The notes beneath the pieces were generated by a model. The model was not told the DNA's origin and searched no databases. It saw only the letters and a list, made by a program, of their open reading frames with translations. 43,632 bases of DNA from Lentisphaeria bacterium (lineage in GTDB: Bacteria; Verrucomicrobiota; Lentisphaeria; Oligosphaerales; Oligosphaeraceae), in the NCBI GenBank assembly GCA_033809415.1, contig JAPXLT010000001.1, forward strand, positions 1 to 43,632, written 5' to 3'. Positions 257-43,632 of the stretch are shown piece after piece; positions within the stretch are counted from its first letter, which is position 1, and each line of letters begins with the position of its first letter. A program made the translations under genes and the position numbers.

Positions 257-401
257 ACTACTCTTAACTTAACGCTTTGTAGCCACACCGACGACGCAAT
301 TCCGTAAAGCCGACCTTGGCGCTCTTGGCGTCTTGGCGGTTAATTCTTCTTCATTGAACCGCCAAGCAACCGGAGAAAGCAACAAACCAAACCGCAAATC
401 C

Positions 402-479
402 GCATGCCGTTTCATCTGTCAAAACAACAACCCTATAGAAAATTTTCGTGCCTTTTCGTGCTTTTCGTTGTTAAAAAAA
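402..479 (+). repeat. D element copy 1 (forward)
   Basis: GCATGCCGTTTCATCTGTCAAAACAACAACCCTATAGAAAATTTTCGTGCCTTTTCGTGCTTTTCGTTGTTAAAAAAA matches the family consensus. It ends 3 nt from the XRE gene stop codon. Confidence 0.9.
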
Positions 480-481
480 GC

Positions 482-1060
482 CTATCCTGGGAAACGCACG
501 ACCATCTGAAATTCGGATTTTCCAGTGGAGATGGTGGTGATCGCATGCGGCAGATCAGCCTCGAAAGCGAGAAAATCGCCTTTTCGCAGTTCAGCCTCAT
601 TGTTTCCGGCTTTGACTTTGATGCTGCCCTTCAGAACCGCGATCAATTCCTCGGTGCCAGGTAGATGCCCTGCCGAGTGATGGGTGCAGCCTGGTTCCTG
701 GGTGACATGATAGAACTCCAGCTCATTGGCCATGCTTACTGGCGATATCACCCGGAAAAGAGTGCCGCTCTGCTGGGTAACCAGGGAAGTGATTTGACTG
801 CCGCGGTTGACTTCAAACCGACGGTTGTCTTCAGAGCCGGATTGCAGCAATACCCCAAAGTCAATCCCCAATGCCTGAACGATTTTCCATAAAACCGCTA
901 CTGTCGGATTGACTTTGCCGGTCTCAATCTGTGAAAGCATCGCCTTCGATACCTGGCTTGCTTCCGACAACTCCTCTAGTGAGAGCTGCTTCCGTTTGCG
1001 TTCACGATGCAAATTGACCCCGATCTCGGGCAAAGCCGCTATTTCCGCATTCCTGTTCAT
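482..1060 (-). CDS. XRE-family HTH transcriptional regulator with C-terminal cupin domain
   Basis: 192-aa ORF. N-terminal XRE-type HTH (QLSLEELSEASQVSKAMLSQIETGKVNPTVAVLWKIVQALG). The C-terminal half looks like a cupin barrel (GTEELIAVLKGSIKVKAG...GDFLAFEADLPH). Confidence 0.85.
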   Translation of the reverse strand: MNRNAEIAALPEIGVNLHRERKRKQLSLEELSEASQVSKAMLSQIETGKVNPTVAVLWKIVQALGIDFGVLLQSGSEDNRRFEVNRGSQITSLVTQQSGTLFRVISPVSMANELEFYHVTQEPGCTHHSAGHLPGTEELIAVLKGSIKVKAGNNEAELRKGDFLAFEADLPHAITTISTGKSEFQMVVRFPG

Positions 1061-3434: not shown

Positions 3435-4205
3435 ATGAAATGCGGATTGGCTTGCGAACGTTGTAAGTTCTTTACATTAATAGAGTTGCTTGTGGTCATA
3501 GCGATCATTGCCATATTGGCCTCGATGCTGCTGCCGGCTTTGAGCAAGGCTCGGGAGAAGGCACAGGCGACTTCCTGCATGGGGAATATACGTCAAATCG
3601 GCTTGGCTCAGAGTGCCTATCTGAGCGATTCCGGCGATATTTTTGCGCCAAACAGGGATCGGAGCAACGGCTCGACAAATATCAATACGTATACATCAAC
3701 GTGGTATGTGCTTTATGCACCCTACCTGGGGCTGACTGAGCAAGCGGCACGTTATCCTGTGCGCGGTTTGGTGTTGACCTGCCCAAGAATGCCGCGCTAT
3801 GTCGGAGGGCATTACAATGTCAGCTATGCCTATAATTGTGAAGCCTTCGGGGAGGCCGGCGTGACTTCAAAGAGCAATTACGGTTTGACCTGGTACTGGC
3901 CGAGGCTGCTCGAGAAGATCAAACGCCCGTCCATGCAGGCGACCCATGCAGATGCCTGCTGGTCCAATTCCACTGAGGATTATCGCACTCGCGGACGATA
4001 TATGCTGGACTATCAGGATTATCTTGCATTCCGACACAGCCGGAAAGCGAATGCGCTTTATGTGGATGGCCATGCCGAACCCGGCGATGCAGTCTGGCTC
4101 TGGCAGGGACACCCTGCCAGCTATCCCTGGAATATCTGTGGTCGCAATCGTGCTTGGTATGCGTATCCCGGTCGCAAGGCCTGGGAAGTGGCATATGGCT
4201 ATTAA
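3435..4205 (+). CDS. Prepilin-type N-terminal cleavage/methylation domain protein (T2SS pseudopilin-like, DUF1559 / H-X9-DG type)
   Basis: AGGAG RBS about 8 nt upstream. [31 protein letters not shown] prepilin motif. C-terminal H-X9-DG ([12 protein letters not shown]). Confidence 0.85.
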
Positions 4206-4208
4206 TCC

Positions 4209-4283
4209 GAGGGTCTCCCATCCGTCTGAGCAACAACCCTATATAAAATTTCGTGTTTTTTCGTGTGTTTCGTGGTTAAAAAA
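4209..4283 (+). repeat. D element copy 2 (forward)
   Basis: GAGGGTCTCCCATCCGTCTGAGCAACAACCCTATATAAAATTTCGTGTTTTTTCGTGTGTTTCGTGGTTAAAAAA. Starts 4 nt after the pseudopilin stop. Confidence 0.9.
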
Positions 4284-4328
4284 TCTTTCCTTGCGTAATC
4301 ACGAGTCTCTAACGTAAAATGAGGTGTC

Positions 4329-7765: not shown

Positions 7766-7895
7766 TCTTTTTTCTCCGACTGATCCGTCGGAGAAACCAA
7801 TAGACCAGATCATAAATCCGCGTGCCATCCCATCCGTCAGAGCAGCAACCCCTAGAAAATTTTCGTGCCTTTTCGTGTCTTTTCGTGGTTAAAAA
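7766..7895 (+). repeat. D element copy 3, long form (hairpin module plus D core)
   Basis: TTTTTTCTCCGACTGATCCGTCGGAGAAACC...GCGTGCCATCCCATCCGTCAGAGCAGCAACCCCTAGAAAATTTTCGTGCCTTTTCGTGTCTTTTCGTGGTTAAAAAC. Same architecture as 15218-15341 and 31714-31836 in reverse. Confidence 0.9.
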
Positions 7896-8005
7896 CGTAA
7901 AAACGTCGTTTTTGACTCGGCTTGAAAAATTCGGCATGGGGGATTATCTTATTATACTTTACCTTTTATTTTTCAAGTTTTTCCACGTTTTAAGGAGGAT
8001 TTTTT

Positions 8006-11228: not shown

Positions 11229-11669
11229 GGCAGGTGGCAGGGTGCGGGGTGCAGGTTTAAAAAGTGGCGCAACCGTCCCGGTTGTGTGGTGCAGGGTGCA
11301 GGGTGCGGGGTGCGGGGTGCAGGGTGCAGGGTGCAGGGTGCAGGTGTCAGGGTGCAGGGGGCGTAGAGGACTATGTTCTGTCCACCCTGTCCACCGCGTC
11401 CACAATGTCCACTTTATCCATAGTGTCCAGCCTGCCCCCTGCACCCTGCACCCTGCACCCTCCTTCCCTCGCGCACGCGGTAAGGGTGGTTCGCCCCCTG
11501 GTTGGGTGGGGCTTGGAGGCTGTCTGAACCACGGCGAAAAAATAGTGCCGCAAAAACGATTTTTCAAGCAGAATCATAAGAAGTCATGCAGAAACATAGA
11601 AAATCCACAGAAGTCATAGCAATTCCTAATCCTGGAAATCTGCCTTTTCGTGCCTTTCGTGGTTAAAAA
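11229..11669 (+). repeat. Full composite mosaic: G-heptamers / module A / G-heptamers / GTCCAC 9-mers / C-heptamers / module B / D tail
   Basis: G-heptamers 11229-11254. A at 11255-11287. (GGGTGCR)n at 11288-11366. Six 9-mers (GTCCACNNN) at 11380-11433. (CCCTGCA)n at 11434-11463. B at 11468-11644. Partial D (CCTTTTCGTGCCTTTCGTGGTTAAAAAC) at 11641-11669. Confidence 0.9.
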
Positions 11670-11754
11670 CTTTTTTGGACACCCCTAAAGTCGTGTCAGT
11701 CGCGTCAGAAGTTTGAAATGATGATTTGCTGAAATGCCTTCGGAAACTATGTTA

Positions 11755-11989: not shown

Positions 11990-12886
11990 ATGAAGATCAA
12001 GCAAAATTTTCACATTCATTCTCAACGCTCCTGTGACAGCGCCTGCGCGAGTATCCTCGATATCATCGCGGAAATGGAGGAGTTCGGGATCGAAGAATAC
12101 GGTTTGACAGATCATATTCATACAGCATACAATCTGCCGGATGTTATAAGTGCAAGAAGGGATTATCTTGCCTCGCGTCCACCGGCAAATTTTCATTTTG
12201 GCGTCGAGGTGAGCTGCATGGATCAGCGGGAATGCGACCGCGTGGCGGCTGGCGATTATACTGCATGGGGTGACGAACCGGTCTATGGCTTCCGCGACAT
12301 GACCGACTATACAGGACAAATGGCCATCGGCATTACGCCGGAGGAAATCCTGGAGCTTGGCATTGAATATGTGGTCGGTGGCGTGCATTGGCCGCTGACA
12401 GTGTCGGAAGACCGTGATACGATCATTCGGAATTATCTCGATCAGCAACTGTTTCTTGTCAGGCATCCATCCGTGCACGTGCTGGCTCATCCCTGGGATT
12501 CACTGGCCCATGCTGTGGGCAACTGGTATAAGTACCGGACTAAGGAGCATGTCGATCTTACCGCATTCCGTTTTATTCCGGAAGAATACAACGATGCCCT
12601 GGCGCAGGCTCTTCTCGAGGAGGGAAAAGCCGCCGAGGTGAATCTCGCCGTTGTCGGGGGTGCTATTCCGGAAGTCCGGGAATATATGTTGAAACTCTTC
12701 GCAGGTTGGAAGCAGAAGGGAGTGAAATTCACCATCGGTGACGACCTGCATAAGGCCCATTTCTCGAAAGAGCTGTTCGAACGTGCAGAACAGTGGCTTA
12801 CAGAATGGGGGTTTGCAGAGAATGATTTTGTGCTTCCGTTTCAACAGAAATCGAAACAATATTTGCCAGAGCAACAAACCCTATAA
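11990..12886 (+). CDS. PHP-domain metal-dependent phosphoesterase (histidinol-phosphatase-like)
   Basis: 298-aa ORF. N-terminal FHIHSQRSCDS and LTDHIHT resemble the PHP His/Asp metal motifs. The last 7 codons and the TAA stop lie inside D element copy 5. Confidence 0.65.
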   Translation: MKIKQNFHIHSQRSCDSACASILDIIAEMEEFGIEEYGLTDHIHTAYNLPDVISARRDYLASRPPANFHFGVEVSCMDQRECDRVAAGDYTAWGDEPVYGFRDMTDYTGQMAIGITPEEILELGIEYVVGGVHWPLTVSEDRDTIIRNYLDQQLFLVRHPSVHVLAHPWDSLAHAVGNWYKYRTKEHVDLTAFRFIPEEYNDALAQALLEEGKAAEVNLAVVGGAIPEVREYMLKLFAGWKQKGVKFTIGDDLHKAHFSKELFERAEQWLTEWGFAENDFVLPFQQKSKQYLPEQQTL

Positions 12887-12926
12887 AAAATTTTCGTGCC
12901 TTTTCGTGTTTTTTCGTTGTTAAAAA
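12866..12926 (+). repeat. D element copy 5 (forward), overlapping the 3' end of the PHP gene
   Basis: CCAGAGCAACAAACCCTATAAAAAATTTTCGTGCCTTTTCGTGTTTTTTCGTTGTTAAAAAA. Confidence 0.9.
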
Positions 12927-12968
12927 ATAGATTGTGGGCGTCAGCCCACCCCAAAAGGAGAAGTCCAA

Positions 12969-15197: not shown

Positions 15198-15217
15198 GCG
15201 GACGAACGCACAATACA

Positions 15218-15341
15218 TTTTTTAACAACGAAAAGGCACGAAAAGGCAAATTTTTTATAGGGTGTTGCTTTGACGGATGGGATGGCACGCGGACTGTGAT
15301 CAGGGACGCTGGTTTCTCCGACGGATCCGTCGGAGAAAAAA
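15218..15341 (-). repeat. D element copy 6, long form (reverse), filling the convergent gap
   Basis: TTTTTTAACAACGAAAAGGCACGAAAAGGCAAATTTTTTATAGGGTGTTGCTTTGACGGATGGGATGGCACGC...GGTTTCTCCGACGGATCCGTCGGAGAAAAAA. Perfect 7-bp hairpin at 15316-15335. Confidence 0.9.
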
Positions 15342-19213: not shown

Positions 19214-19276
19214 TTTTTTTTACCACGAAAGGCACGAAAATTTTTTCTAGGGTGTTGCTTTGACGGATGATCATGC
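19214..19276 (-). repeat. D element copy 7 (reverse)
   Basis: TTTTTTTTACCACGAAAGGCACGAAAATTTTTTCTAGGGTGTTGCTTTGACGGATGATCATGC. Confidence 0.85.
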
Positions 19277-19347
19277 TCTGGCGAAGTTCTTGTGTGCCAA
19301 GATTGGCTTTACGCAGTTGCGTCGGAGGCGATATGGAACGCCGGCAA

Positions 19348-19375
19348 CTTTTTTAACCACGAAAAACATGAAAAC
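19348..19375 (-). repeat. D element fragment, copy 8 (reverse)
   Basis: CTTTTTTAACCACGAAAAACATGAAAAC, on the 3' side of the tRNA gene. Confidence 0.7.
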
Positions 19376-19533: not shown

Positions 19534-19576
19534 AAGCAACACCCCTATTTTTTCGTGTGGTTCGTGGTTAAAAAAA
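19534..19576 (+). repeat. D element fragment, copy 9 (forward)
   Basis: AAGCAACACCCCTATTTTTTCGTGTGGTTCGTGGTTAAAAAAA. Inverted relative to copy 8, so the two bracket the tRNA. Confidence 0.8.
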
Positions 19577-23767: not shown

Positions 23768-23795
23768 AGAGGCAGTGGTCAGTGGACAGTCTTCC

Positions 23796-24020: not shown

Positions 24021-24039
24021 GTCTCTTCCGTATCCTATA

Positions 24040-25446: not shown

Positions 25447-25450
25447 ATAA

Positions 25451-25796: not shown

Positions 25797-25898
25797 CCAT
25801 CTGCAGATAAAATATGCTCGGGAACCTTTTTTTTTAGACGTGGTCTATTTAAAAGCCGATTGCCGTAACGGTAAGACGTCAGTGCAACTGGATGACAG

Positions 25899-26025
25899 TT
25901 TTTTTTACAACGAAAAACACGAATGGACACGAAAAAATTTCATGGAAAATACGACTTGTTCTCGCAGACAAAGCCACTTCCATGAAATTTTTTCGTGTCC
26001 TTTCGGGCATTTCGTTGTTCAAAAA
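25899..26025. repeat. Inverted pair of D elements (copies 10 and 11) forming a long hairpin
   Basis: TTTTTTTACAACGAAAAACACGAATGGACACGAAAAAATTTCATGG, a 34-nt loop, then CCATGAAATTTTTTCGTGTCCTTTCGGGCATTTCGTTGTTCAAAAA. The inner 21 bp are perfectly complementary. Confidence 0.85.
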
Positions 26026-26249
26026 GAATTTCTTGCCTATCCGGGGTCACTGCCGCCTTGCCGCAACGACGCAAAAAACCTTCCATGATCCTCGAATCCA
26101 GTAGTAAAATGGCGTCGGGAAGGTACATTAAACGTCAGGACACGGGCCTGCCCTTTTGCGGCGTTTCCCTGTTGGGCGGGAAATAATCCCGCTTTTGAAC
26201 CGTTTATTGCTTGGAGCTTTTTTCTGCATCCAGGCTGATTTTCGAAAAT

Positions 26250-31702: not shown

Positions 31703-31713
31703 GCACAACACAT

Positions 31714-31836
31714 TTTTTAACAACGAAAAGACACGAAAAGACACGAAAATTTTTTTATAGGGTTGTTGCTTCGACGGATGAAATGGCACGCGAATTTGTG
31801 ATCTGGCCTATTGGTTTCTCCAACGGATCAGTCAGG
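31714..31836 (-). repeat. D element copy 12, long form (reverse; hairpin module degenerate)
   Basis: TTTTTTAACAACGAAAAGACACGAAAAGACACGAAAATTTTTTTATAGGGTTGTTGCTTCGACGGATGAAATGGCACGCGAA...GGTTTCTCCAACGGATCAGTCAGGG. Confidence 0.85.
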
Positions 31837-32002: not shown

Positions 32003-32092
32003 TCCATCGTCCATCGTCCATCGTCCATTCAGCAGTCCATTCTTGTCCATTCCGTCCATCTTGTCCATTCCTGTCCCTGTCCATCGTCCATA
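32003..32092. repeat. Degenerate GTCCAT-based tandem array (7- to 12-nt units)
   Basis: GTCCATCGTCCATCGTCCATCGTCCATTCAGCAGTCCATTCTTGTCCATTCCGTCCATCTTGTCCATTCCTGTCCCTGTCCATCGTCCAT. Confidence 0.85.
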
Positions 32093-32133
32093 AAAAATCT
32101 TTCCCAAAAAACAAGATTCTGGGTGATAGTAGT

Positions 32134-32218
32134 ACGAAAATTTTTTTATAGGGTTGTTGCTTCGACGGATGAAATGGCATGTGGTTTAAAAAGTAGCGCA
32201 ACCGTCTCGGTTGTGATT
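32134..32218. repeat. D fragment (reverse) fused to module A (forward); the same junction as 40319-40430 in the opposite orientation
   Basis: ACGAAAATTTTTTTATAGGGTTGTTGCTTCGACGGATGAAATGGCATGTG-GTTTAAAAAGTAGCGCAACCGTCTCGGTTGTGAT. Confidence 0.85.
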
Positions 32219-32290
32219 GCTGTTTGCCCTCCCACGCTCGCACGCTCCCGTATGCAAGGGGCGCGTGACATAATCCCTAATCCAAATACC

Positions 32291-33943
32291 ATGCAAAATA
32301 CGACTGAACAACTCGAATCGACTTTACAGGCGCCCGTACCTGCCCCAGCGATGCTCGAACGCATACGTCAGCAATTGCAAAGCAAAATTCACGTTGCTCC
32401 GGATGCGGAGCTGGCTTGTGGCAGTGCCAGTCTCGATCAGGCTCTAGTTGCCGCCGGCAAGATCGAAGAGGGCGCTCTGTTGCAAATCTATGCAGAGGCG
32501 TCCGGTCTGAGCCTGCTCGATGAACAGGAAACCCGTGATGTCAATTTCTATCCGGAAGTCACCTTCGATTTCCTGAATACAGAATGCTGCCTGCCGCTGG
32601 CCTGGAGCAACGAGCAGGCCGTCCTCGCCATTGCTGCACCATACGCAGCAGGAAGACTGGCACTGCTGTGGAAAAACTTCTATGACGCAGAGGTGACCTT
32701 TGTCTTGGTGCGACGCTCATTTATCGAACGGCACATCAGTTCACTATATGACCGTCCCGACGAGGAGACCGGTGTCAACTGGGATGCCAGTAGCGAGCAG
32801 GCTCTGCGTGATCTTGCCAAGGAAGCCCCCATCGTCCGGCTGGTCAATGATATTTTCACCCAGGCCCAGGAAGCCGGCGCATCCGATATTCATATCGAAC
32901 CCGGCGAAAACGATGTCGCCGTCCGTTTCCGTATTGATGGTCTGCTGCAGGTGATTATGCGTCCGCCGAAGAATCAATATGCGGCCATAGCTTCGCGAAT
33001 CAAGCTGTTAGGCGGCATGAATATCGCGGAACACCGCCTGCCCCAGGATGGGCGTATCGAGCTTACCGGAAGCAGCATGAATTCGATTGACGTGCGCGTA
33101 AGCACGGTTCCAGGCATGCATGGCGAAAGCATAGTCCTGCGTTTGCTGCAAAAGGACCCGGCAGTCTTCGAGCTGGGAAAAATCGGCCTGCTTCCGGATA
33201 CGCTCGAGGAACTCGAGAAGCTATTCAATATGCCGCATGGCATCCTCCTGGTCGTCGGACCAACCGGCAGCGGGAAAACGACAACCCTCTATTGCATCAT
33301 GAATGTCCTCAATGCCGATTTCCGGAAGATCATCACCATCGAAGACCCGGTCGAATACCAGCTCGAGGGGCTAACACAAATCCACGTCCGCGCAAATATC
33401 GGCCTCACTTTCGCCAACGGGCTGCGCGCAATTGTACGCCAGGACCCCGATGTCATCCTCGTCGGAGAAATCCGCGACCGGGAAACCGCCGAAATCGCCA
33501 TCCATGCGGCGCTGACCGGACACCTGGTGCTGAGCACGCTGCATACCAACGATGCCGCAGGCGCAATCAGCCGCCTGATCGAAATGGGCGTCGAGGGATT
33601 CCTGATCTCATCCGCCATGCTGGCCGTGGCGTCACAGCGCCTCGTGCGCAGAATCTGCCCGGAATGCCAGGGAAGCGGAAGGATCGAGGGCGAGGAAAAG
33701 CGACGCTGCCGGAATTGCCTGGGAAGCGGATATCGCGGACGAATTGCCATCTTCGAGCTGATGATCATCAATGACGAATTACGCGCCGCTATCAATAGTC
33801 ATAAAGACACTTCCGAAATTACCAATATCGCGCGCCGCAATGGAATGCGCACACTCAAAGAGGACGGAGACCTCAAAGTCGAGCAGGGGCTAACCACCGC
33901 GTCCGAAGTCGCCCGAGTCTGTAAACTAGACCTCGATGAATAA
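32291..33943 (+). CDS. Type II secretion / type IV pilus assembly ATPase (GspE/PilB family)
   Basis: Track ORF (GTG 32123) runs through repeats, so I trimmed it to ATG 32291; ATG 32252 is also possible. T2SSE N-domain, Walker A GPTGSGKTTT, Asp/His boxes, Walker B VILVGEIRD, tetracysteine CPECQG...CRNCLG. Confidence 0.9.
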   Translation: MQNTTEQLESTLQAPVPAPAMLERIRQQLQSKIHVAPDAELACGSASLDQALVAAGKIEEGALLQIYAEASGLSLLDEQETRDVNFYPEVTFDFLNTECCLPLAWSNEQAVLAIAAPYAAGRLALLWKNFYDAEVTFVLVRRSFIERHISSLYDRPDEETGVNWDASSEQALRDLAKEAPIVRLVNDIFTQAQEAGASDIHIEPGENDVAVRFRIDGLLQVIMRPPKNQYAAIASRIKLLGGMNIAEHRLPQDGRIELTGSSMNSIDVRVSTVPGMHGESIVLRLLQKDPAVFELGKIGLLPDTLEELEKLFNMPHGILLVVGPTGSGKTTTLYCIMNVLNADFRKIITIEDPVEYQLEGLTQIHVRANIGLTFANGLRAIVRQDPDVILVGEIRDRETAEIAIHAALTGHLVLSTLHTNDAAGAISRLIEMGVEGFLISSAMLAVASQRLVRRICPECQGSGRIEGEEKRRCRNCLGSGYRGRIAIFELMIINDELRAAINSHKDTSEITNIARRNGMRTLKEDGDLKVEQGLTTASEVARVCKLDLDE

Positions 33944-34013
33944 TTTTTAACAACGAAAAGCACAAACAGGCACGAAAATTTTCCGCGCTTTCCGTGCTTT
34001 CCGTGGACAAAAA
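33944..34013. repeat. Inverted pair of D elements (copy 14a, and 14b of the CCGTG variant) in the convergent gspE/recQ gap
   Basis: TTTTTAACAACGAAAAGCACAAACAGGCACGAAAATTTTCCGCGCTTTCCGTGCTTTCCGTGGACAAAAAT. Begins immediately after the ATPase TAA. Confidence 0.85.
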
Positions 34014-34031
34014 TAGTTTGTGGATGCCAGT

Positions 34032-36083: not shown

Positions 36084-36097
36084 GACAAAATTCTAAT

Positions 36098-36284
36098 GGA
36101 CGGGACACGGACTGGACACGGACTGGACACGGACTGGACACGGACTGGACACGGACTGGACACGGACTGGACACGGACTGGACACGGACTGGACACGGAC
36201 TGGACACGGACGGGACACGGACTGGACACGGACTGGACACGGACTGGACACGGACTGGACACGGACTGGACACGGACGGGACAG
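36098..36284. repeat. Tandem 11-mer array, 17 units (GGACTGGACAC x14 and GGACGGGACAC/G x3)
   Basis: Counted directly: 187 nt = 17 x 11, with variant units at positions 1, 11 and 17. It starts 15 nt upstream of the recQ ATG. Confidence 0.95.
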
Positions 36285-36293
36285 ACATTTCAG

Positions 36294-36363
36294 CACCCTG
36301 TCCCCTGCACCCTACCCCCTGCCCCCTGCCCCCTGTCCCCTGTCCCCTGCACCCTGCACCCGC
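36294..36363. repeat. C-rich heptamer array (CCCTGCA / CCCCTGC / CCCCTGT), overlapping the 3' end of larA
   Basis: CACCCTGTCCCCTGCACCCTACCCCCTGCCCCCTGCCCCCTGTCCCCTGTCCCCTGCACCCTGCACCCGC. Confidence 0.9.
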
Positions 36364-37643
36364 ACGATAACAGAGACTCCGTCTGGGATAATCGCGATTT
36401 TGGCGCTTGAGCCGGTTTTTCGTCTGGCCAGCATCAGTGCCTCTTCGAGTGTACCGGCTGCCTGCATATGCATGGCCTGAATCATCGCGTGATTGCGTTG
36501 CTCCGTAACCACGATCACCGGATTTTTCGACAGGACTCTCGCCAGTATCTGGCTTTCCCATTGATCAGGAACCGTCTCGGTCGCCGGAACCTTCCGCAGC
36601 TTTTCCAGGACTTCTGCGGGGGACTTTGCTTCTGCCAGCGTGCGATAGAATCCCTCGCCGCCATGCCCGTCCTGGCAGGCTGCCGCGATGATGATGACTC
36701 CGCCCGGCGCGACCGCTGCTTCCGCCGCAGTCATTCCCTTGACTGCCTGATAGAGGTTCTGATCGAGCGGATAGCCCCCATTGCTGGTGATCACAATTTC
36801 ACTTTCCGGCACTTTAATCAAGGACAAGCCGGACATTTCCCGGCAGCCGGTCTCGTGTGCCGCAAAGGCGTCCCCCGCAAAAGCCCGCACAACTTCCTTT
36901 TCGCCATTCAAAATAACATTAACAATAAATGCAAGGCCCGCTTTCTTTGCCGCCCAGAGCATATCCCTGTGCAGCGGATTATTCTCGAGGTTCCCAGTGC
37001 GAGCAAATTCCGAATCGATAAAGGCCGCGCAGTGATTGCTCAAGACCGTCGTGCGACCGGCTATCCCTGGCAGCACGCTTTTGCGTCCGCCGGAGAATCC
37101 GGCAAAGAAATGCGGTTCGATGAAGCCTTCCGCGAGCAGCAAGTCTGTCTCGAGGGCAAGTTTATTCAGCCACAACTCGCCTCCGGATGGCAGGATTCCC
37201 GCGAATGCCAGCGAAGATTGATCCTGGCAGTCGTGCACGACGATATGTTCCCGGTCAACGATTTCGTCGCCGAACTTTCTCCGCAATTCCGCCTCTGTCG
37301 TTGCCCGGTGGAATCCAGTGGCAATCAGGATGGTGATCTGAATTTCCGGATTCCCACGGCGCAATTCCCGCAGCATTGGCGGCATGATGACCTTGCTGGG
37401 CACAGGACGGGTATGGTCGCTGGCGATGATTACCGCAGTTCTTTTGCTGCGGGCAAGTTCTGCCAGCCCACTCGAACCAATCGGCTGCGCCAGTGCTTTG
37501 TCTACCAGTTCCATCCCGGAGCTTCGAGGACGCTCCTGCTCGATCATCGAGCGAAAAATCCCGGCGACATCCTCTCTCGCCAGAGATAATTCCAACTTCC
37601 CATGCCCATAAGGAATCTGCGCGGTAATTTCCATTTTGCCCAT
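36312..37643 (-). CDS. larA: Nickel-pincer-dependent lactate racemase LarA (DUF2088 family)
   Basis: Collinear with L. plantarum LarA as I recall it: SDHTRPVPS, EGFIEPHFFAGFSGGRKSVLPGI, NGGYPLDQNLYQAVKGMTAAEA, GHGGEGFY, PDQWESQI, IIPDGVSVIV. The last 16 residues (RVQGAGDRGQGAGGRG) and the stop come from the heptamer array. Confidence 0.88.
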   Translation of the reverse strand: MGKMEITAQIPYGHGKLELSLAREDVAGIFRSMIEQERPRSSGMELVDKALAQPIGSSGLAELARSKRTAVIIASDHTRPVPSKVIMPPMLRELRRGNPEIQITILIATGFHRATTEAELRRKFGDEIVDREHIVVHDCQDQSSLAFAGILPSGGELWLNKLALETDLLLAEGFIEPHFFAGFSGGRKSVLPGIAGRTTVLSNHCAAFIDSEFARTGNLENNPLHRDMLWAAKKAGLAFIVNVILNGEKEVVRAFAGDAFAAHETGCREMSGLSLIKVPESEIVITSNGGYPLDQNLYQAVKGMTAAEAAVAPGGVIIIAAACQDGHGGEGFYRTLAEAKSPAEVLEKLRKVPATETVPDQWESQILARVLSKNPVIVVTEQRNHAMIQAMHMQAAGTLEEALMLARRKTGSSAKIAIIPDGVSVIVRVQGAGDRGQGAGGRG

Positions 37644-37686
37644 AAAAAATTCGTGCTTTTTCGTATCTTTTCGTTGTTAAGAAAAG
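37644..37686 (+). repeat. D element fragment, copy 15 (forward), filling the folC-larA gap
   Basis: AAAAAATTCGTGCTTTTTCGTATCTTTTCGTTGTTAAGAAAAG. The folC stop codon (TTA on plus, 37677-37679) lies in its GTTAAG end. Confidence 0.8.
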
Positions 37687-38909
37687 AGCTTTTCTCCAAT
37701 ACATGCAGTGAAGAAAGACCCCGTGAAGAGCAGGGGAGTTTCTGCTGGCAGCTGGCTCTTGTCCTGCAAGTTTTCAAGGATTGCGTTCACCTTCAACCCC
37801 GCTTTTGCTGCGTGTTCCTGCAATTCTTTCAGGGCAGAACCCTTGCTGGTATGCGGATTGGTGAGAATATAGTCCGCATCGAGTTTTTTCAGCGCCTCGA
37901 CCATGCCTGCGACATCCTTGCCCTGGACCATGCCCAGAACGACCGTAAAATGAATGCCGGGGTAAAGTTCTTGCAACGCCGCAACCAGCTTCTGCATCGA
38001 ATCCGCATTGTGTGCGGCATCCAGAACAACCAGAGGCACCGTGCTGATCGTTTCACAGCGGGCACGCAATTCCGGCAAGCGGAAGCGATCCCAGACCGGA
38101 TGCAAGCCAAGAACATTCATCACCTGCAACGCCACCGTGAAATTACTCCGCAGAAATGGAGCACAAGCCGACGGCAGAATCCCACCCGGAATATTCTGTA
38201 CCGGAAGCGGACGATATACCGGCACCTCGAGTTCACGGGCGCGTGCCATGATCACTTCTTCCGCCGCCGGAAAAGGCTGTTCGGCCAGCACCAGAGGACA
38301 ACCGCGCTTGAGAATGCCAGCTTTTTCCCCGGCAATCGCTTCAATGCTCGAACCGAGCAGAGCTAGATGATCATAACTTACCGGAGTAATCACCGTGCAT
38401 TGCGGCGAGGAAATATAATTCGTCGCATCGAGGCGTCCGCCAATACCCGTCTCGAGCACAACCCAGTCCAAACCCTCCTTGGCAAAGATTTTCAGAGCTA
38501 GAACCGTGAAAATCTCGAACAAACTGGGTTCCAGGCCAGCGGCAGCAAGCTTTTCGCAGAATTCCTGTCCCGCAGCAGTCAGCGTCTCGTAGGAGACCAA
38601 CTGATTGTCAATCTGAAAACGCTCACGCACCGTAGCCAAATGCGGACTGGTGAAGAGTCCGACCCGCTGCCCGCAAGCAGAAAGCAGGCTCGAGATATAA
38701 TGCGAAGTCGAACCCTTGCCCTTGGTGCCCGCAACGTGGACAATCTTCAGAGAACCCTCCGGATTGCCTGCCAGAGCCGCCAGCGGCAGCATCCTTGCTA
38801 AAGAGTAATTAGCAGGATCATGCTGACGCTTGGCATCTCTTTCTGAATCATAATAATGCTGGAACAACGAAAAAAAAGCCCGTTCCGCATCTTCCCTGTA
38901 ACCGCGCAT
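37677..38909 (-). CDS. folC: Folylpolyglutamate synthase / dihydrofolate synthase
   Basis: Mur-ligase P-loop HVAGTKGKGST, then FTSPHL, ETGIGGRLDATN and DAAHN in the C-domain. 410 aa. Confidence 0.85.
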   Translation of the reverse strand: MRGYREDAERAFFSLFQHYYDSERDAKRQHDPANYSLARMLPLAALAGNPEGSLKIVHVAGTKGKGSTSHYISSLLSACGQRVGLFTSPHLATVRERFQIDNQLVSYETLTAAGQEFCEKLAAAGLEPSLFEIFTVLALKIFAKEGLDWVVLETGIGGRLDATNYISSPQCTVITPVSYDHLALLGSSIEAIAGEKAGILKRGCPLVLAEQPFPAAEEVIMARARELEVPVYRPLPVQNIPGGILPSACAPFLRSNFTVALQVMNVLGLHPVWDRFRLPELRARCETISTVPLVVLDAAHNADSMQKLVAALQELYPGIHFTVVLGMVQGKDVAGMVEALKKLDADYILTNPHTSKGSALKELQEHAAKAGLKVNAILENLQDKSQLPAETPLLFTGSFFTACIGEKLFS

Positions 38910-38917
38910 AACCCAGA

Positions 38918-38954
38918 GTTTTCGTGCCTTTTCGTGTCTTTTCGTTGTTAAAAA
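38918..38954 (+). repeat. D element fragment, copy 16 (forward)
   Basis: GTTTTCGTGCCTTTTCGTGTCTTTTCGTTGTTAAAAA. Confidence 0.85.
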
Positions 38955-38967
38955 TGAGAAGATGCGT

Positions 38968-39267: not shown

Positions 39268-39339
39268 CGTTTCATCTCCTTGTGCTGATTCCTAAACGCA
39301 CACAAACTATAAAGCACAAAACCACTGATGTCAAATCGA

Positions 39340-39408
39340 TTTTTAACAACGAAAAGCACGAAAAGTACGAAAATTTTCGTGTCTTTTCGTGCTTTTCGTT
39401 GTTAAAAA
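39340..39408. repeat. Head-to-head D element dimer (copies 17a and 17b), a near-perfect 69-nt palindrome
   Basis: TTTTTAACAACGAAAAGCACGAAAAGTACGAAAATTTTCGTGTCTTTTCGTGCTTTTCGTTGTTAAAAA. The outer 26 bp are perfectly complementary. The psd stop codon lies in the right-hand GTTAAAAA. Confidence 0.9.
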
Positions 39409-40292
39409 AATGTGTTCCGTCCGATTTCTTCTCCCATTCGCACTAGGCATTCCATATTTTCGCCGCTCTTTTCCAGCAAGTCTGCCGAAAAATTGACCCT
39501 GCCTGCCGGAAAGATCAGAATAATCGTCGAACCTCCAAATGCAAAAAAACCTTTTTCCTCGCCGCGACGGAAGGCAGACCCCTCGAAGGTCTGTTGAATC
39601 GAGGCAACCCCGAAGGCGCCCACTTCGATAAAGGCCGTTTTGCCGAAACCCTTCAATTCGAGTATCGAGACCTGGCGAACATTTTCGGAGAATACCCGCA
39701 GCCCCCGCTGTAATGCCAACGGATGAACGGAATGATATTTACCGCGCAGACGCCAGGTCTTCAGAAGCTGTCCGTCCGCCGGAAAATGATAGCGGTGATA
39801 ATCGGCTGGGCACAGACGGCAGATGCACAACGCCCCGTCCTTGAATCCCTCGACCAGGTCTGCTCCCTCGAGTCCCAGCAGCTCCGCAACCGTGAAGCGT
39901 GTCCCCTTGACCGGAATACAGCAATCCCCGCTTAACTTTGGATAGACCAACATCCGGCAATCTGCCGGAGAAATCAAACAATCCTCGTTTTCCGCCAGTG
40001 GGCGTGCGCCCGGCTTCAGTTTCCGGGTAAAAAAATCATTGAAGCTCGAAAAACCGCCGTCGGGCATCTCGACTTCGGACAGATCAATACCCAATTCCTT
40101 GACTGTTCCGGCAATCCTTCTCCTGGAAAACCGCGAGTCCGCATAGAACCCCAGCAGCCGCGAACACAAAGACCCGGCAAACAGAGGCCAATGCAAGCAT
40201 TTCCCGAAAGCGGACTGATAAGCAAAGCGCAACAGCGAGTCACCAAGCACTTTCTCCTGCTCGATGCAACCCGTCCGCCGATTATAAATCAT
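39402..40292 (-). CDS. psd: Phosphatidylserine decarboxylase proenzyme
   Basis: FNDFFTRKLKPGARP, and the self-cleavage motif FGGSTI (GST). Start set at MIYNRRTG (40292) by analogy with other Psd N-termini. The upstream in-frame TTG/ATG at 40319/40316/40310 abut module A. Confidence 0.85.
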   Translation of the reverse strand: MIYNRRTGCIEQEKVLGDSLLRFAYQSAFGKCLHWPLFAGSLCSRLLGFYADSRFSRRRIAGTVKELGIDLSEVEMPDGGFSSFNDFFTRKLKPGARPLAENEDCLISPADCRMLVYPKLSGDCCIPVKGTRFTVAELLGLEGADLVEGFKDGALCICRLCPADYHRYHFPADGQLLKTWRLRGKYHSVHPLALQRGLRVFSENVRQVSILELKGFGKTAFIEVGAFGVASIQQTFEGSAFRRGEEKGFFAFGGSTIILIFPAGRVNFSADLLEKSGENMECLVRMGEEIGRNTFF

Positions 40293-40318
40293 AACTACGC
40301 CTTGTCCCATCCGCATCA

Positions 40319-40430
40319 ATCACAACCGGGACGGTTGCGCCACCTTTTAAACCGCTTGCCATTCCATCCGTCAAAGCAGCAACCCTACAAAAAATTTTCG
40401 TGTCTTTTCGTGTCTTTTCGTTGTTCAAAA
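40319..40430. repeat. Module A (reverse) fused to D element copy 18 (forward)
   Basis: ATCACAACCGGGACGGTTGCGCCACCTTTTAAAC-CGCTT-GCCATTCCATCCGTCAAAGCAGCAACCCTACAAAAAATTTTCGTGTCTTTTCGTGTCTTTTCGTTGTTCAAAA. The FAD oxidoreductase stop (TCA on plus, 40425-40427) is inside GTTCAAAA. Confidence 0.9.
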
Positions 40431-42185
40431 CTCCTTAACTTCGAAAGCGAACAAGCGGCACTCCTCGGAACCCCAGGTGCTTTCCGGGATCAGCCGCACA
40501 GCGTCCGTTTCGACTTCAAAATCCACCCGCACCAGGCGCTGGTAATTATTGTCTTCCCGGTAGAACTCCTTCCAAGTGCCATCTGCCTGACGTGCCTCGA
40601 GGCGGAAGCTTTTTACCAACGTTGTTGGCGGAAGGCGCGGAGGCTGGTTCAGAGGAAAATTCGACAGGATGTTTTTCTCCCAGTGATGGCTGCAAGCTCC
40701 CTGTCCCTTCCGGTTCAGGTCACTGTCAAAGACCAGACGCGCGCTGCGGACAGTCTGCCGCTTCCCGAAGTCGTATTCGATGCAATCACCGCATTTGCCG
40801 CACCAGGAGTTTGCCGCGTCGCCGACCGGTCTGTCGATCCCATTGCGCAGCGCTTCCGCGTCCCCGCTCGAAGCGCGCAGCCGCGCTTTCGCCGATAAGG
40901 GGGCAATTTCCCGTTTGACTCTGGGCAGATAGCAATCATCCTCGAGCAGGAGCTGTTGCAGTTCCTGGATGTGGCTCTGATAAACTCCACGCGGGTTGCA
41001 GCTGTTTTTCACCGCCAGCGCTGCCGCGATTCCGACCGCATGTCCCATGAGGCTGCATGTGGCCATTACTCGAGTCGAGCTGATCCCGATATGCGTCGTG
41101 CTGATATTCCGGCCCGCAAAAAACAGGTTGTCAATGTTCCGCGAGTACAGGCTGCGGTAAGGAATGCCGTAGATTTCGGGTACGTGGATATTCCGGTTCG
41201 GGGGACCCGAATAATAAAATCCGCCAGGATGATGATCATCAATCGGCCAGCCACCATATGCGACAACATCTTCAAATTCGCCACGTGATAGGATTTCCTT
41301 TTCCGAAAGGATGTGGTCGCCCAGATAGCGGCGGCTTTCCCGCTTGCCAGGCAGGAAGCCGACCCATTCCAGCTCCCAGTTGTCCGCGCCATGATCCCCA
41401 TGATTCTTGATATGATCCCACACCCCAAAGGCCAGCGCAACCAGCTCGTCCCGCAAAGTCTCCGTGTCATGGATCGAATCCACATCACCGCCCAGCTCCA
41501 TCCACCAGAAATTGCTCAGGCCGGTAAAACCGTGCCCGCGATGTGCCAAATCATCATCGGACAGGATCTTCTTTGCCCAACGGGGCGCAATGAATGTTTT
41601 CGGGGAGTCCGTCTCACGTGCCTGGATCAGGCAGCTCATCCCCATGGTCTTGTTGTCAGCCACTTCATGCGCCAGGCTTTCCCCGAACTCCTCCGCAGCT
41701 TCGCGCCCAATGCGGAAGTCCGCACCGCTCAATGGCGCCAGAATGCTGTCGCCCGAGCAATCCGCGAAAAGCTTCGCCTCGATCGTATGCCAAGTCTCCG
41801 CAGTCCCCTGCCAGCCGCGCACCGAAACAATCCGATTCCCGGACATCTCGAGCGAATTCACCGAGCAATTCAAAAACAGGGTCAGGTTCTTCTCCTCGAT
41901 TGCCAGCTGATACAGAACGCTATCCCAGATCGAGAAATTCGAGCTGGGATTGCGGTAGTTGTTCTCGAGGTTGACTTCTTCGACTAGTCCGGTCTCGCGC
42001 TGGTCTTTGCCAGTAGCTCCGCAAATCCACATCCGGATTTCACTCGAAGCATTTCCCCCAAGCACAGGACGGTCATGCACCAGGGCTGTCCGTATCCCCT
42101 GGCGTGCCGCTGCTACCGCCGCGCATAAGCCAGACATGCCGCCGCCTACCACACAAAAGTCAAACCTGTGATTCAATTCTTTCAT
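40425..42185 (-). CDS. FAD-dependent oxidoreductase (FAD_oxidored-type, GIDA-like N-terminus)
   Basis: Track GTG 42197 trimmed to ATG 42185 (GGAGTGAG RBS). Dinucleotide-binding FDFCVVGGGMSGLCAAVAAARQGIRTALVHDRPVLGGNASSE. Substrate unknown. Confidence 0.75.
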   Translation of the reverse strand: MKELNHRFDFCVVGGGMSGLCAAVAAARQGIRTALVHDRPVLGGNASSEIRMWICGATGKDQRETGLVEEVNLENNYRNPSSNFSIWDSVLYQLAIEEKNLTLFLNCSVNSLEMSGNRIVSVRGWQGTAETWHTIEAKLFADCSGDSILAPLSGADFRIGREAAEEFGESLAHEVADNKTMGMSCLIQARETDSPKTFIAPRWAKKILSDDDLAHRGHGFTGLSNFWWMELGGDVDSIHDTETLRDELVALAFGVWDHIKNHGDHGADNWELEWVGFLPGKRESRRYLGDHILSEKEILSRGEFEDVVAYGGWPIDDHHPGGFYYSGPPNRNIHVPEIYGIPYRSLYSRNIDNLFFAGRNISTTHIGISSTRVMATCSLMGHAVGIAAALAVKNSCNPRGVYQSHIQELQQLLLEDDCYLPRVKREIAPLSAKARLRASSGDAEALRNGIDRPVGDAANSWCGKCGDCIEYDFGKRQTVRSARLVFDSDLNRKGQGACSHHWEKNILSNFPLNQPPRLPPTTLVKSFRLEARQADGTWKEFYREDNNYQRLVRVDFEVETDAVRLIPESTWGSEECRLFAFEVKEF

Positions 42186-42264
42186 AATTATTCTCACTCC
42201 AAGTCATTAAACCGCCAAAATACCAAGCAATCAGAGAGAAAACAACAGACCAACCCGTAAAACC

Positions 42265-42340
42265 GCGTGCCAGCCCATCCGTCGAAGCACCAACCCCATA
42301 AAAATTTTTCGTGCCTTTTCGTGCTTTTCGTTGTTAAAAA
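42265..42340 (+). repeat. D element copy 19 (forward), near-consensus full core
   Basis: GCGTGCCAGCCCATCCGTCGAAGCACCAACCCCATAAAAATTTTTCGTGCCTTTTCGTGCTTTTCGTTGTTAAAAA. Ends 2 nt from the kdsD stop. Confidence 0.9.
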
Positions 42341-42341
42341 C

Positions 42342-43340
42342 TCACATCATCTTGAACTTCGGCAGGTCCTGGATATCCACCAGGCCCATGAAGTGTCCCT
42401 GGTCGTCTACGGCTATGATATCATCGATTTTGCGCTTCTCGATGATTTTCATGATCTCGACCGCGAGGCAGTTCTGATTGATCGTGATTGGAGACTTCGT
42501 CATGACCTCTTCGATCTTTGCATTGAGCAGATCAGCGTCGCGCATGATCCCTCGCCGGAAATCCCCGTCCGTGAAGATTCCCAGCAGCATGTTATCCTGA
42601 TCGACGATGGCCACTGCGCCAGTACGCGCCGCAGTCATCTTCAGCAGAGCTTCCCGCACGCTTGTGCCGGGCAGTACGCTTGGGGCGTGCTCCCCGCTAC
42701 GCATGCAGTCTTGCACAGTCATCGTAATGCTGCGTCCAATCGCGCCGGCGGGATGCAGCTTTGCATAGTCATTCAGGCCAAAGCGGCGGCAATCGAGCAA
42801 AACCATTGCCAGCGCATCGCCGAGCGCCGCCAGTGCAGTCGTCGTCGTAGTCGGCGCCAAGTTGAAGGGGCAGGCCTCCCGCGGCACCGGCATGGGCACG
42901 CAAAAATCCGACCAGCCTGCAAGGCGTGACTCCGGCTTGCCGGTGATTGCAACGATTGCCACGCCCAGGCGTTTTACTGCCGGCAGCACCGCAAGCAGCT
43001 CATCCGTCTCACCGCTATAACTGACCGCCAGCATCAAATCCAGCTCGGAGACTTCCCCTAGGTCCCCGTGCATCGCTTCCACCGGATGCAGAAAAATCGC
43101 CCGCGACCCCGTGCTCGCAAGAGTCGCCGCGATCTTCTTGCTGATATGACCGCTTTTGCCAATCCCGCACAGCACCAGCTTGCCGCCACGATGCAATGTG
43201 TCCAGACAGCAATGCACCAGATGCACAAAATCCTCGCCAAGGTCCGACTGCAATGCCTGCAATCCCTCGATCTCGATCTCAACAACCTCCGCCGCACGAC
43301 GCAGGATTTCCTCAGAATCAGGACGATTCGTTTCCATCAT
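42342..43340 (-). CDS. kdsD: KpsF/GutQ-family arabinose-5-phosphate isomerase (SIS plus tandem CBS)
   Basis: GKLVLCGIGKSGHISKKIAATLASTGSRAIFLHPVEAMHGDLG, SYSGET, and C-terminal CBS pair. 332 aa. Confidence 0.9.
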   Translation of the reverse strand: MMETNRPDSEEILRRAAEVVEIEIEGLQALQSDLGEDFVHLVHCCLDTLHRGGKLVLCGIGKSGHISKKIAATLASTGSRAIFLHPVEAMHGDLGEVSELDLMLAVSYSGETDELLAVLPAVKRLGVAIVAITGKPESRLAGWSDFCVPMPVPREACPFNLAPTTTTTALAALGDALAMVLLDCRRFGLNDYAKLHPAGAIGRSITMTVQDCMRSGEHAPSVLPGTSVREALLKMTAARTGAVAIVDQDNMLLGIFTDGDFRRGIMRDADLLNAKIEEVMTKSPITINQNCLAVEIMKIIEKRKIDDIIAVDDQGHFMGLVDIQDLPKFKMM

Positions 43341-43451
43341 AAACCGCTCTCTTATTAATAAGGATTAGTAAGGACGAGTAATTGAAGATAATATACCATC
43401 CCCACACCGCAAAGACAAATCTAACACAGGGGGGGGGAACACACACAAGCT

Positions 43452-43526
43452 ATTTTTGTCCACGGAAAGCACGGAAAGCGCGGAAAATTTTTTTAGGGTT
43501 GTTGCTCTGATGGATGGCGGTGCGGG
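43452..43526 (-). repeat. D element copy 20 (reverse, CCGTG variant)
   Basis: ATTTTTGTCCACGGAAAGCACGGAAAGCGCGGAAAATTTTTTTAGGGTTGTTGCTCTGATGGATGGCGGTGCGGG. Confidence 0.85.
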
Positions 43527-43534
43527 ATGTGTGG

Positions 43535-43632
43535 GTGGACAGTGTGGACAGTGTGGACAGTGTGGACAGTGTGGACAGTGTGGACAGTGTGGACAGTGTG
43601 GACAGTGTGGACAGTGTGGACAGTGTGGACAG
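43535..43632. repeat. Tandem 9-mer array (GTGGACAGT), at least 11 units, truncated by window end
   Basis: Perfect GTGGACAGT repeats from 43535 to the last base. It is the same unit as the array inside MITE copy 1 (1289-1325). Confidence 0.95.

Follow-up and report, generated by a model that had tools for sequence, protein, structure and literature searches.

The 43,632-nt stretch of Lentisphaeria bacterium DNA analysed here (GenBank assembly GCA_033809415.1, contig JAPXLT010000001.1, positions 1 to 43,632; hereinafter the window) is punctuated by a short intergenic repeat, D, which is abundant, modular, close to stop codons, and gained and lost between relatives. The core of D belongs to a family of short-unit arrays that spans bacterial phyla and brackets genes of the GxxExxY family, and the unit with the gene has inserted at a gene junction, as seen at one site that is empty in some genomes and filled in others. 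We consider it moderately probable that D is a non-autonomous, mosaic intergenic repeat, akin to miniature inverted-repeat transposable elements (MITEs) and repetitive extragenic palindromic (REP) sequences, derived from the ends of GxxExxY cassettes.

Abundance, anatomy and position of D

The repeat described at positions 42265-42340 in an earlier note on this DNA is real: all 76 of its 76 nt align to the consensus given there, at 92% identity. An nhmmer profile built from eight long D copies and run against the window yields 22 hits (E<0.01), the same number as had been counted before, and the exact 9-mer TTTTCGTGC occurs 13 times compared with 0.61 expected from shuffles, none of 100 shuffles reaching 13. 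Eight or nine of the 22 copies are near full length; the remainder are partial, consisting of module B only or of a truncated module A plus B. All 22 lie at gene boundaries, overlapping gene ends by no more than 30 nt, at a density of one copy per 2 kb, and the labels previously given to the flanking genes agree with Pfam assignments. Three open reading frames (ORFs) adjoining D (11242-11619, 23600-24040 and 36076-36561) sit on tandem repeats and are probably not genes.

DNA of the window is found in anaerobic-digester and biogas metagenomes. In DNA contigs of run X4 the D core has a depth of 16879 and its flanks 9.85; the remaining D bins give core/flank depth ratios of about 100-400, with an overall span of 100-1000. 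Together with the density in the window, these ratios fit hundreds to thousands of D copies per genome equivalent. Among the matches listed, full D copies are confined to metagenome-assembled genomes (MAGs) of Lentisphaeria and Oligosphaeraceae, and a literature search with the D sequence gave no match.

The constant 3′ core of D, module B, comprises three ~10-nt units followed by the anchor GT(G/T)GTTAAAAA. The earlier claim of three direct repeats stands as to their number but not as to the repeated unit, since the units read TTTTCGTGYC, TTTTCGTG(Y)C and TTTTCGT(T/G)G, with a period of ~10 nt. An A-rich linker (CCCTATAAAAAA) connects module B to module A (GCGTGCCATCCCATCCGTCAGAGCAAC), to the left of which come, in some copies, a T-run, a 7-bp hairpin and CCAGATCACAAAT and, in others, module X (CACAACCGGGACGGTTGCGCCACTTTTTAAACC); beyond the anchor, some copies run on with AATGTRTTGTG and a small hairpin. 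In the window and in related genomes, nhmmer matches nearly always end at profile positions 84-94 and start at 3-58, indicating a constant 3′ end and a variable 5′ end. Module B also occurs solo and as back-to-back inverted doublets at 25.9, 33.98 and 39.37 kb, which together with a pair flanking a tRNA gene make four arrangements with terminal inverted arrays. Single D copies do not fold significantly on either strand (z –0.3 to +1.2 relative to shuffles); B(–)/B(+) doublets do (z –2.4 to –9.8), forming hairpins of up to ~32 bp. Searching Rfam 15 returned only a tRNA and the Acido-Lenti-1 motif in the window, with no match for D and none in 18 array-rich loci.

Module X is a separate repeat family of about ten copies (CACAACCGGGACGGTTGCGCCAC TTTTTAAACC), with a 6-bp hairpin and a T-run 6 nt later, and is the most terminator-like motif of the region. 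Its copies (47-108, 146-207, 1336-1418, 1732-1803, 3181-3263, 11232-11293, 11758-11819, 23681-23742, 32161-32222 and 40293-40375) are followed downstream by heptamer arrays or by module A of D.

The positions of D are significantly biased. As the earlier note had reported, each of the six gaps that separate co-oriented genes between 37.6 and 43.5 kb holds a copy, and D hugs stop codons: 12 of the 17 testable units in the window overlap the adjacent stop or lie within 14 nt of it (–30, –11, –11, –9, –4, –3, –3, –2, 3, 9, 13 and 13 nt). When units are placed at random in the same gaps, with the same coding overlap allowed, 7.1 ± 1.6 qualify (P=0.0035). Gap length thus does not account for the bias, and D is not random with respect to stops in the window. 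At ten independent loci of related Lentisphaeria, D has a median distance of 7.5 nt from stops and 98.5 nt from starts, and it lies nearer the stop in 11 of 15 co-directional gaps there and in 10 of 12 in the window. Both orientations of D relative to transcription do occur, as noted before, but the accompanying view that this argues against a simple directional signal needs qualification, as the B end usually abuts the stop: its 36 contacts within 30 nt of a gene end comprise 28 stops and 8 nominal starts.

Copies also supply the stop codons themselves. The TTAA or TTGA of the B anchor is the stop of the Mur ligase, PSD and FAD oxidoreductase genes, the left end TTAATCC that of the pseudopilin gene, and the TATAAA of the linker that of the PHP gene. 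Termini of GTAG-type REPs likewise often supply the stop codon of flanking ORFs (PMC3733652).

Comparison of orthologous gaps reveals that D varies in presence both between strains and between species. A 1223-nt DNA contig of run X4, whose flanks match the window at ~97% identity, has no D at 12857-12934. The site is a segment replacement, in which positions 12849 and 12963 are joined by 31 nt in the contig and by 113 nt (12850-12962) in the window. The PHP protein ends in ..QQKKKR* in the empty allele and in ..QQKSKQYLPEQQTL (SKQYLPEQQTL) in the window, where D provides the last codons and the stop, and the next ATG is preceded by AGGAGG in the former and by a new AAGGAG in the latter.

Between species, D occupies the same two gaps as in the window at one related locus (L102, PSD 86% identical), and the orthologous gaps are short and free of D in L103 (PSD 76%), L104 (71%) and L133 (56%, with the order KdsD-FAD oxidoreductase-PSD kept). 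D at the FAD oxidoreductase site (40320..40435) is shared with L102 and absent in L103 and L133, the protein ending in FAFEVR* in L133 versus FAFEVKEF* in the window; the stop of KdsD is conserved, and the orthologous KdsD gap in L133 contains no D. Upstream of the conserved Mur-ligase ATG, where L104 has AAGGTG and no B, a B array of the window ends 9 nt before the start codon.

Arrays of the D core and GxxExxY genes in other phyla

Scanning one genome per species with TTTTCGTGYCTTTTCGTG located B arrays at no fewer than 101 loci (at least 101), in Planctomycetota, Verrucomicrobiota, Kiritimatiellota, Lentisphaerota, Acidobacteriota, Desulfobacterota and others; the carriers include complete genomes, namely Sulfidibacter corallicola and several chromosome-level MAGs. 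Among the 108 matches listed, 57 have a further unit ending in GG within 6 nt, outside the search pattern (0.8% of control positions), and 49 have an inverted partner within 260 nt (6.5% of controls), excesses for which chance does not account. Each array has 2-6 units that repeat every 9-11 nt; at its outer side stands the anchor GTGG-N-Y-A, after which TCTTCC often comes. Between neighbouring arrays the (–,+) order predominates by far, with 51 of 59 cases no more than 210 nt apart, (+,–) neighbours being one gene length apart. This order and the short spacing show the unit to be an inverted pair whose anchors face outward and abut coding sequences.

The copies in the window follow the same grammar. 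They read TTTTCGTGYC two or three times and then CGT(G/T)GTTAAAAA, a form also present at loci L017, L190, L191 and L212, and D has at least two direct TTYGTG units with a period of 9-11 nt followed by the anchor GTGG-N-Y-A and an A-rich segment. The B arrays of D and those flanking GxxExxY genes share an identical 18-nt core along with the anchor grammar. In Geobacteraceae and Opitutaceae a single B array is preceded, at a constant distance, by a lineage-specific module, an arrangement which parallels module A of D.

Other arrangements accompany these arrays. One Pyrinomonadaceae genome (L073) contains three ~250-nt intergenic elements that are homologous throughout and nested, B arrays lying outside and (CACAGATGAA)n arrays with the anchor TTATCCACA inside. 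This second array type, (CACAGATGAA)n or (TAATCTGTG)n with a perfect DnaA-box-like anchor TTATCCACA or TGTGGATAA, is found at L073:4596-4860, 6305-6565 and 7250-7470 and at L107:1300-1960. A ~730-nt non-coding composite repeat is present twice in one Lentisphaeria MAG (L053:3703-4430 and L059:4498-5230, 93% identical), bounded by B(–) and X+A+B(+), and lacking both a GxxExxY gene and any significant Rfam match.

In eight (–,+) pairs the two arrays stand 400-700 nt apart. Five of these pairs enclose a gene for a ~125-aa protein with matches to TIGR04256 'GxxExxY protein' (E 1e-26 to 1e-40) and to Pfam PF13366 PDDEXK_3. B arrays directly flank 7 of 9 GxxExxY genes among the loci examined. At loci picked by the protein alone (Stieleria neptunia CP037423 and the P0069, P0034 and P0175 loci), B arrays or full doublets flank the gene in 4/4, bringing the overall figure to 11 of 13 distinct GxxExxY loci. 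At L107 the flanking arrays are of the other type, (TAATCTGTG)n with TGTGGATAA at the end, indicating that the array type changes with the gene.

The GxxExxY proteins have the invariant motifs G..E..Y, D, E.K, Q and Y, including an invariant predicted catalytic D..ExK. An AlphaFold (AF2) model (pLDDT, the predicted local distance difference test score, 86.7) has a PD-(D/E)XK fold, with weak matches to Cas4, RecB-type and lambda-exonuclease-type nucleases; a search of solved structures by sequence returned nothing below E 0.27, and a defence-system library contained no real match. The family comprises at least 8000 clusters at E<1e-10, many members lying on contigs under 1.5 kb, and its proteins from Kiritimatiellota and Planctomycetota are ~80% identical. 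PF13366 is listed as of unknown function with multiple inter-division transfers (PMC3424549), and we found no description of flanking arrays or mobility of GxxExxY in the literature searched.

One gene junction is observed both empty and filled. Genes for an ABC ATPase and an FtsX-type permease overlap (GTGA) in L210/L211, and in L017, L212 and L213/214 they are parted by a ~460-nt B(–)-GxxExxY-B(+) segment co-oriented with the ATPase-permease operon. From the host stop the filled site runs through 2-20 nt, anchor and array, 7-12 nt and the GxxExxY ORF (ATG to stop), followed by 1-20 nt, array and anchor, 5-8 nt and the permease ATG. On reading of the sequence, no promoter or Shine-Dalgarno sequence of the cassette's own is evident. 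Start codons of GxxExxY genes, and in the window those of LarA and the Mur ligase, are immediately preceded by the A-rich strand of B, an arrangement at least compatible with translation initiation.

Origin and spread of D

Given the match between its conserved core and the arrays around GxxExxY genes, D is most likely a gene-less, parasitic descendant of the cassette ends. Terminal array B, an inverted pair of which surrounds the ~0.5-kb GxxExxY cassette, would be the origin of the D core; in this digester Lentisphaerota lineage the array would have joined lineage-specific modules (A, X and the small hairpin), and the composite would have multiplied to roughly 10^2-10^3 copies. Gene-less doublets would, like D, be non-autonomous derivatives of such cassettes, and we infer that the putative GxxExxY nuclease may move D in trans. 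Copies would land at gene junctions, their anchor end usually overlapping the stop codon or lying a few nucleotides beyond it. Because TAA or TGA is present at either end of D, a copy placed in the last codons replaces the host stop and the gene survives with a slightly altered C-terminus. Such copies would be tolerated, single ones being unstructured, at least one lying inside one RNA contig, and the A-rich B strand being able to directly precede a start codon. The stop bias can arise from the lifestyle of the cassette, by insertion right behind a host ORF in the same orientation, where it is transcribed and translated by read-through, or it can arise from tolerance, as both D ends carry stop codons. 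Either target choice or selection may lie behind it.

Several observations weigh against this origin. Neither the window, even at E<10, nor those Lentisphaerota and related loci that were searched yielded a GxxExxY gene or a remnant of one. At most, then, D is a derivative without a gene, and the proposed trans-acting enzyme is unobserved in this lineage. About 14 single D copies have no terminal inverted repeats. Neither a target-site duplication nor a clean boundary is seen at the cassette site, nor at the polymorphic D site, the latter being one case with flanks 3-5% diverged. The permeases of L017, L212, L213/214 and L210 are 81-84% identical to one another and the three GxxExxY proteins of the filled sites 63-76%, so the three filled sites could be one old insertion. 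Some taxon labels of MAGs may be wrong. Finally, the D core is ~91% identical at orthologous sites of the window and L102, where the surrounding spacer is unalignable; this conservation could reflect selection at the level of the host rather than selfish spread, or it could reflect gene conversion and homogenisation among copies.

Homogenisation is central to one alternative, in which D is spread and homogenised by general recombination, gene conversion and slippage only, with no dedicated enzyme, as one tile of a patchwork of the kind formed by bacterial interspersed mosaic elements (BIMEs), together with module X and the 7-, 9- and 11-mer arrays. The mosaic anatomy, with its interchangeable left modules (X, hairpin and A) and variable 5′ ends, is what such a process would produce, as are the replacement of 31 nt by 113 nt without target duplication and the many other tandem-repeat families in the same gaps. 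It leaves unexplained, however, how D first arrives at new junctions, why the anchor is oriented to the stop, and why arrays are recurrently paired with one nuclease family in many phyla, and we regard it as unlikely. Still less likely, in our view, is that D serves the host as an mRNA 3′-end element which, like REPs in Escherichia coli, stabilises the upstream mRNA, attenuates translation near the stop or terminates transcription. A retained function of this type had been suggested in the earlier note and is unsupported here. The significant proximity to stops and the conservation of the core amid diverged intergenic DNA speak for it, and the B(–)/B(+) doublets are 30-bp hairpins; yet single copies, the majority, lack a significant fold on either strand, either strand may be transcribed, no stem is followed by a U-tract, and no copy resembles a terminator apart from weak stems inside doublets. 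Nor is there any Rfam match, and close relatives manage without D at the same genes. The RNA data, which are unstranded Logan contigs that break inside D, are divided: depth steps down across D in one run (KdsD 25.7, FAD oxidoreductase 13.5, PSD 4.7), but the steps are missing from three other RNA runs, and one RNA contig covers LarA, B and the Mur ligase. Hairpin-plus-T terminators are not enriched at gene ends between 25 and 43.6 kb (31 versus 23 ± 4.9 in shuffles), so something else may mark 3′ ends there, and the conserved core together with the lack of ordinary terminators may leave room for a host role.

The least probable of these alternatives, to our judgement, is that the arrays are binding sites for a host protein (winged-helix, DnaA-like or nucleoid) that acts as a transcription roadblock, manages supercoils or titrates DnaA, GxxExxY being merely a frequent neighbour. 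Arrays of weaker units with a 9-11 nt period and a stronger outer box, set in opposed pairs, have the look of protein sites, as do T-tracts phased at ~10 bp and the perfect DnaA-box-like anchors of the second array type in L073 and L107. Conservation also speaks for this reading, that of the unit sequence across phyla and that of the D core at orthologous sites. Sites of a host protein would nevertheless sit poorly with the presence/absence differences between close strains, the enormous copy number, the overlap of arrays with coding ends and the change of array type with the adjacent GxxExxY subfamily, and the adjacent ~125-aa nuclease-fold protein, 80% identical across phyla, looks like a case of horizontal spread.

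Several resemblances to known signals and elements did not hold. No convincing –35/–10 of a sigma-70 promoter is visible by eye inside D, and a promoter scan places good ones outside it. Reversed, module A resembles a sigma-54 –24 box (TGGCACG-N4-TTTG), but the conserved GC at –12 is displaced by one position or absent. The likeness of the end TTTTTAACAA to a NusB/E boxA is taken as coincidental, because other phyla have GGCCA or GGCTAA there; the likeness to Mu ends (CACGAAAAACGCGAAAG) led, in a scan of viral contigs, to 8 hits, none at contig ends. Module A shows no recognisable descent from GxxExxY coding sequence in the frame translations examined.

The earlier suggestion of a REP/MITE-like element with a preference for gene 3′ ends agrees with what we find, D being high-copy, intergenic, variable in presence and stop-proximal. 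Like the REPs and BIMEs of Enterobacteria and Pseudomonas, and the REP doublets forming hairpins (REPINs) with their REP-associated tyrosine transposases (RAYTs), D is high-copy, extragenic and located at gene 3′ ends, occurs as singlets and hairpin-forming inverted doublets in mosaics with other short motifs, and has a counterpart in which repeats flank a small gene, the presumed mobiliser. Unlike them, its unit is not a palindrome (it does not form the stem-loop of a REP or REPIN) and its core consists of three direct ~10-nt units; no GTAG or CGTC tag was found in D alignments, the ends being ..TAAAYCC and GTTAAAAA. The gene that lies between the arrays in other phyla is PD-(D/E)XK-fold GxxExxY, not a HUH/Y1 RAYT, and both the D core and the GxxExxY protein are nearly the same across phyla, unlike REP/RAYT.

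With classical MITEs (Correia/NEMIS, RUP, ERIC, Nezha and Chunjie) D shares its small size, lack of genes, abundance, intergenic location and strain variability; its gene-less B(–)/B(+) doublets have terminal inverted arrays in common with the gene-carrying version of other phyla, no such version having been found in the DNA of this lineage that was searched, and both can sit inside operons without breaking them. It differs in that single copies have one array end only, no target-site duplication is seen, the terminal repeats are built from short direct units, and the ~0.5-kb gene-carrying partner has a gene for a nuclease-fold protein in place of a DDE, HUH or serine transposase. With the GxxExxY family (TIGR04256; PF13366) the likeness lies in the ends, the flanking arrays matching the B arrays of D, which is itself gene-less. 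The short tandemly repeated repetitive (STRR) heptamers of cyanobacteria, reportedly described by Mazel et al. in 1990, are said to fill intergenic DNA with short tandem units. The window also has 7-, 9- and 11-mer arrays, but D is a dispersed composite of fixed length with three units, not an open-ended array.

It is possible, although we lean somewhat against it, that B(–)-GxxExxY-B(+) represents a previously unrecognised class of minimal mobile element. Such an element would be ~0.5 kb long with a predicted PD-(D/E)XK nuclease as its sole gene and ends of short direct units; it would insert at stop/start junctions in operons, rely on the host to transcribe and translate it, and pass from phylum to phylum. 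Very large gene-less families, D among them, would arise from it and remodel gene ends through the stop codons and leader sequences that they donate. If the link between D and the cassettes holds, it provides a first biological context for the very large function-unknown family GxxExxY/PF13366. It would also explain why GxxExxY genes sit on short, broken contigs, and account for a repeat family that fragments metagenome assemblies of the Planctomycetes-Verrucomicrobia-Chlamydiae (PVC) group, Acidobacteriota and related phyla; contigs of the lineage of the window end at the same repeats. The pairing would be a nuclease-based counterpart of REP/RAYT, in which a selfish element rewrites the C-termini, stop codons and translation-start regions of ordinary genes, and it would explain why such an element is tolerated at stop codons. 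In annotation, the practical consequence is that D and its sister arrays give rise to spurious ORFs and displace the stops and starts that are predicted.

Copies of D and other features of the window

Table 1 Copies and fragments of D in the window, with their sites.
Feature	Position	Strand	Site and remarks
D near full length (A + linker + B)	395..483	+	B end abuts stop of XRE-cupin gene (482-1060, -); nhmmer E 1e-25
D near full length	4202..4287	+	Left end TTAATCC includes TAA stop of pseudopilin (3435-4205); next start codon 41 nt on
D full length	7813..7899	+	Left extension from ~7767: T-run, 7-bp hairpin CTCCGACnGATCCGTCGGAG, CCAGATCAYAAATCC
D partial: linker + two B units + anchor	11613..11675	+	nhmmer E 1e-7
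D 5′-truncated	12857..12934	+	Encodes last 9 codons and TAA stop of PHP gene; missing in ~97% identical strain
D full length	15211..15296	-	Hairpin extension to ~15343; fills convergent gap between GH36-like gene and 995-aa gene
D partial: truncated A + two B units	19217..19277	-	Found by nhmmer
B remnant	19348..19374	-	With 19534-19576 brackets tRNA-Met gene 19418-19494
D partial: end of A + two B units + anchor	19534..19576	+	13 nt from RtcR stop
B(-)/B(+) inverted doublet	25896..26029	.	30-nt centre; long hairpin, z -8.3
D full length with hairpin extension	31706..31798	-	B end including AATGTGTTGTG tail 3 nt from secretin stop
Module A + module X + B stub only	32134..32222	-	Found by nhmmer
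B(-)/B(+) doublet	33941..34017	.	Convergent gap: stop of type II secretion system (T2SS) ATPase at left edge, RecQ 14 nt away
B only	37639..37687	+	Fills 33-nt gap; TTAA is Mur-ligase stop; LarA ATG directly after array
B only	38911..38958	+	9 nt past stop of 99-aa ORF; ends 9 nt before conserved Mur-ligase ATG
B(-)/B(+) doublet	39335..39410	.	Near-perfect 32-bp hairpin, z -9.8; TTAA is PSD stop
Module X (40320-40352) + full D (40348-40435)	40320..40435	+	D end TTTTGA is last codon and stop of FAD oxidoreductase
D full length (copy first pointed out)	42257..42344	+	Begins 1 nt after conserved TGA stop of KdsD
Truncated A + B variant	43448..43518	-	TTTCCGYG units, anchor GTGGACAAAAA

The tRNA-Met (CAT) gene at 19418-19494 (–) sits inside an outward-facing B(–)/B(+) pair (19348-19576), in the position that GxxExxY occupies in cassettes. 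The nearby locus encoding RtcR (sigma-54 activator), RtcA (RNA cyclase) and RtcB (RNA ligase), at 19590-23579, contains a divergent promoter gap (21176-21358) that is among the few gaps without D.

Tandem arrays of other kinds fill many gaps. Arrays of 7-nt units (GGGGGCA / GGGTGCA) occupy 1-70, 11247-11390, 23551-23715 and 25436-25521, and heptamer arrays on the complementary strand (CCCTGCC) 1745-1808, 11424-11473, 11910-11987 and 36290-36374; they resemble the cyanobacterial STRR heptamers and create spurious ORFs. Tandem (GTGGACAGT)n is found at 1272-1334, 3115-3177 and 43517-43624, 9-nt units with GTCCAC at 11810-11965 and 23751-24059, (GGACTGGACAC)n at 36087-36295 and a GTCCAT type at 31995-32095, the 9- and 11-nt-unit arrays sharing a GTCCA(C/T) / TGGAC core. 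By analogy with the B and TGTGGATAA-anchored arrays that flank GxxExxY elsewhere, the 9- and 11-nt arrays may be ends of related elements; more broadly, if the cassette is indeed a new class of mobile element, sister cassettes could be the source of all the gap-filling tandem arrays (7-, 9- and 11-mers) and of the TGTGGATAA-anchored type, as their ends.

An insertion sequence (IS) of the IS4 family at 24042-25444 carries a DDE_Tnp_1 transposase gene (24152-25351, –) and 14-nt terminal inverted repeats (TGCTAACTTGTTTT / AAAATAAGTTAGCA); these are unrelated to D, and the element was rejected as its mobiliser. A ~100-130-nt repeat (GGGCTTGGAGGCTGTCTGAACCACGGCGAAAAAATAGTGCCGC...) is present in three copies of 83-88% identity in both orientations (1497-1629, 11470-11606 and 25647-25758). 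In a repeat-rich gap, between a D copy and an A+X copy, lies an Acido-Lenti-1 RNA motif (Rfam RF01687; 31906-31950, –), scoring 38.2 bits against a threshold of 37; the phyla of this motif (Acidobacteria and Lentisphaerae) overlap those of the B arrays. A near-consensus sigma-70 promoter (TTGACA-17-TATAGT; 39306-39334, –) is located just downstream of a B doublet and upstream of the 99-aa ORF, which has an AAGGAG ribosome site and the highest RNA contig depth in the region.

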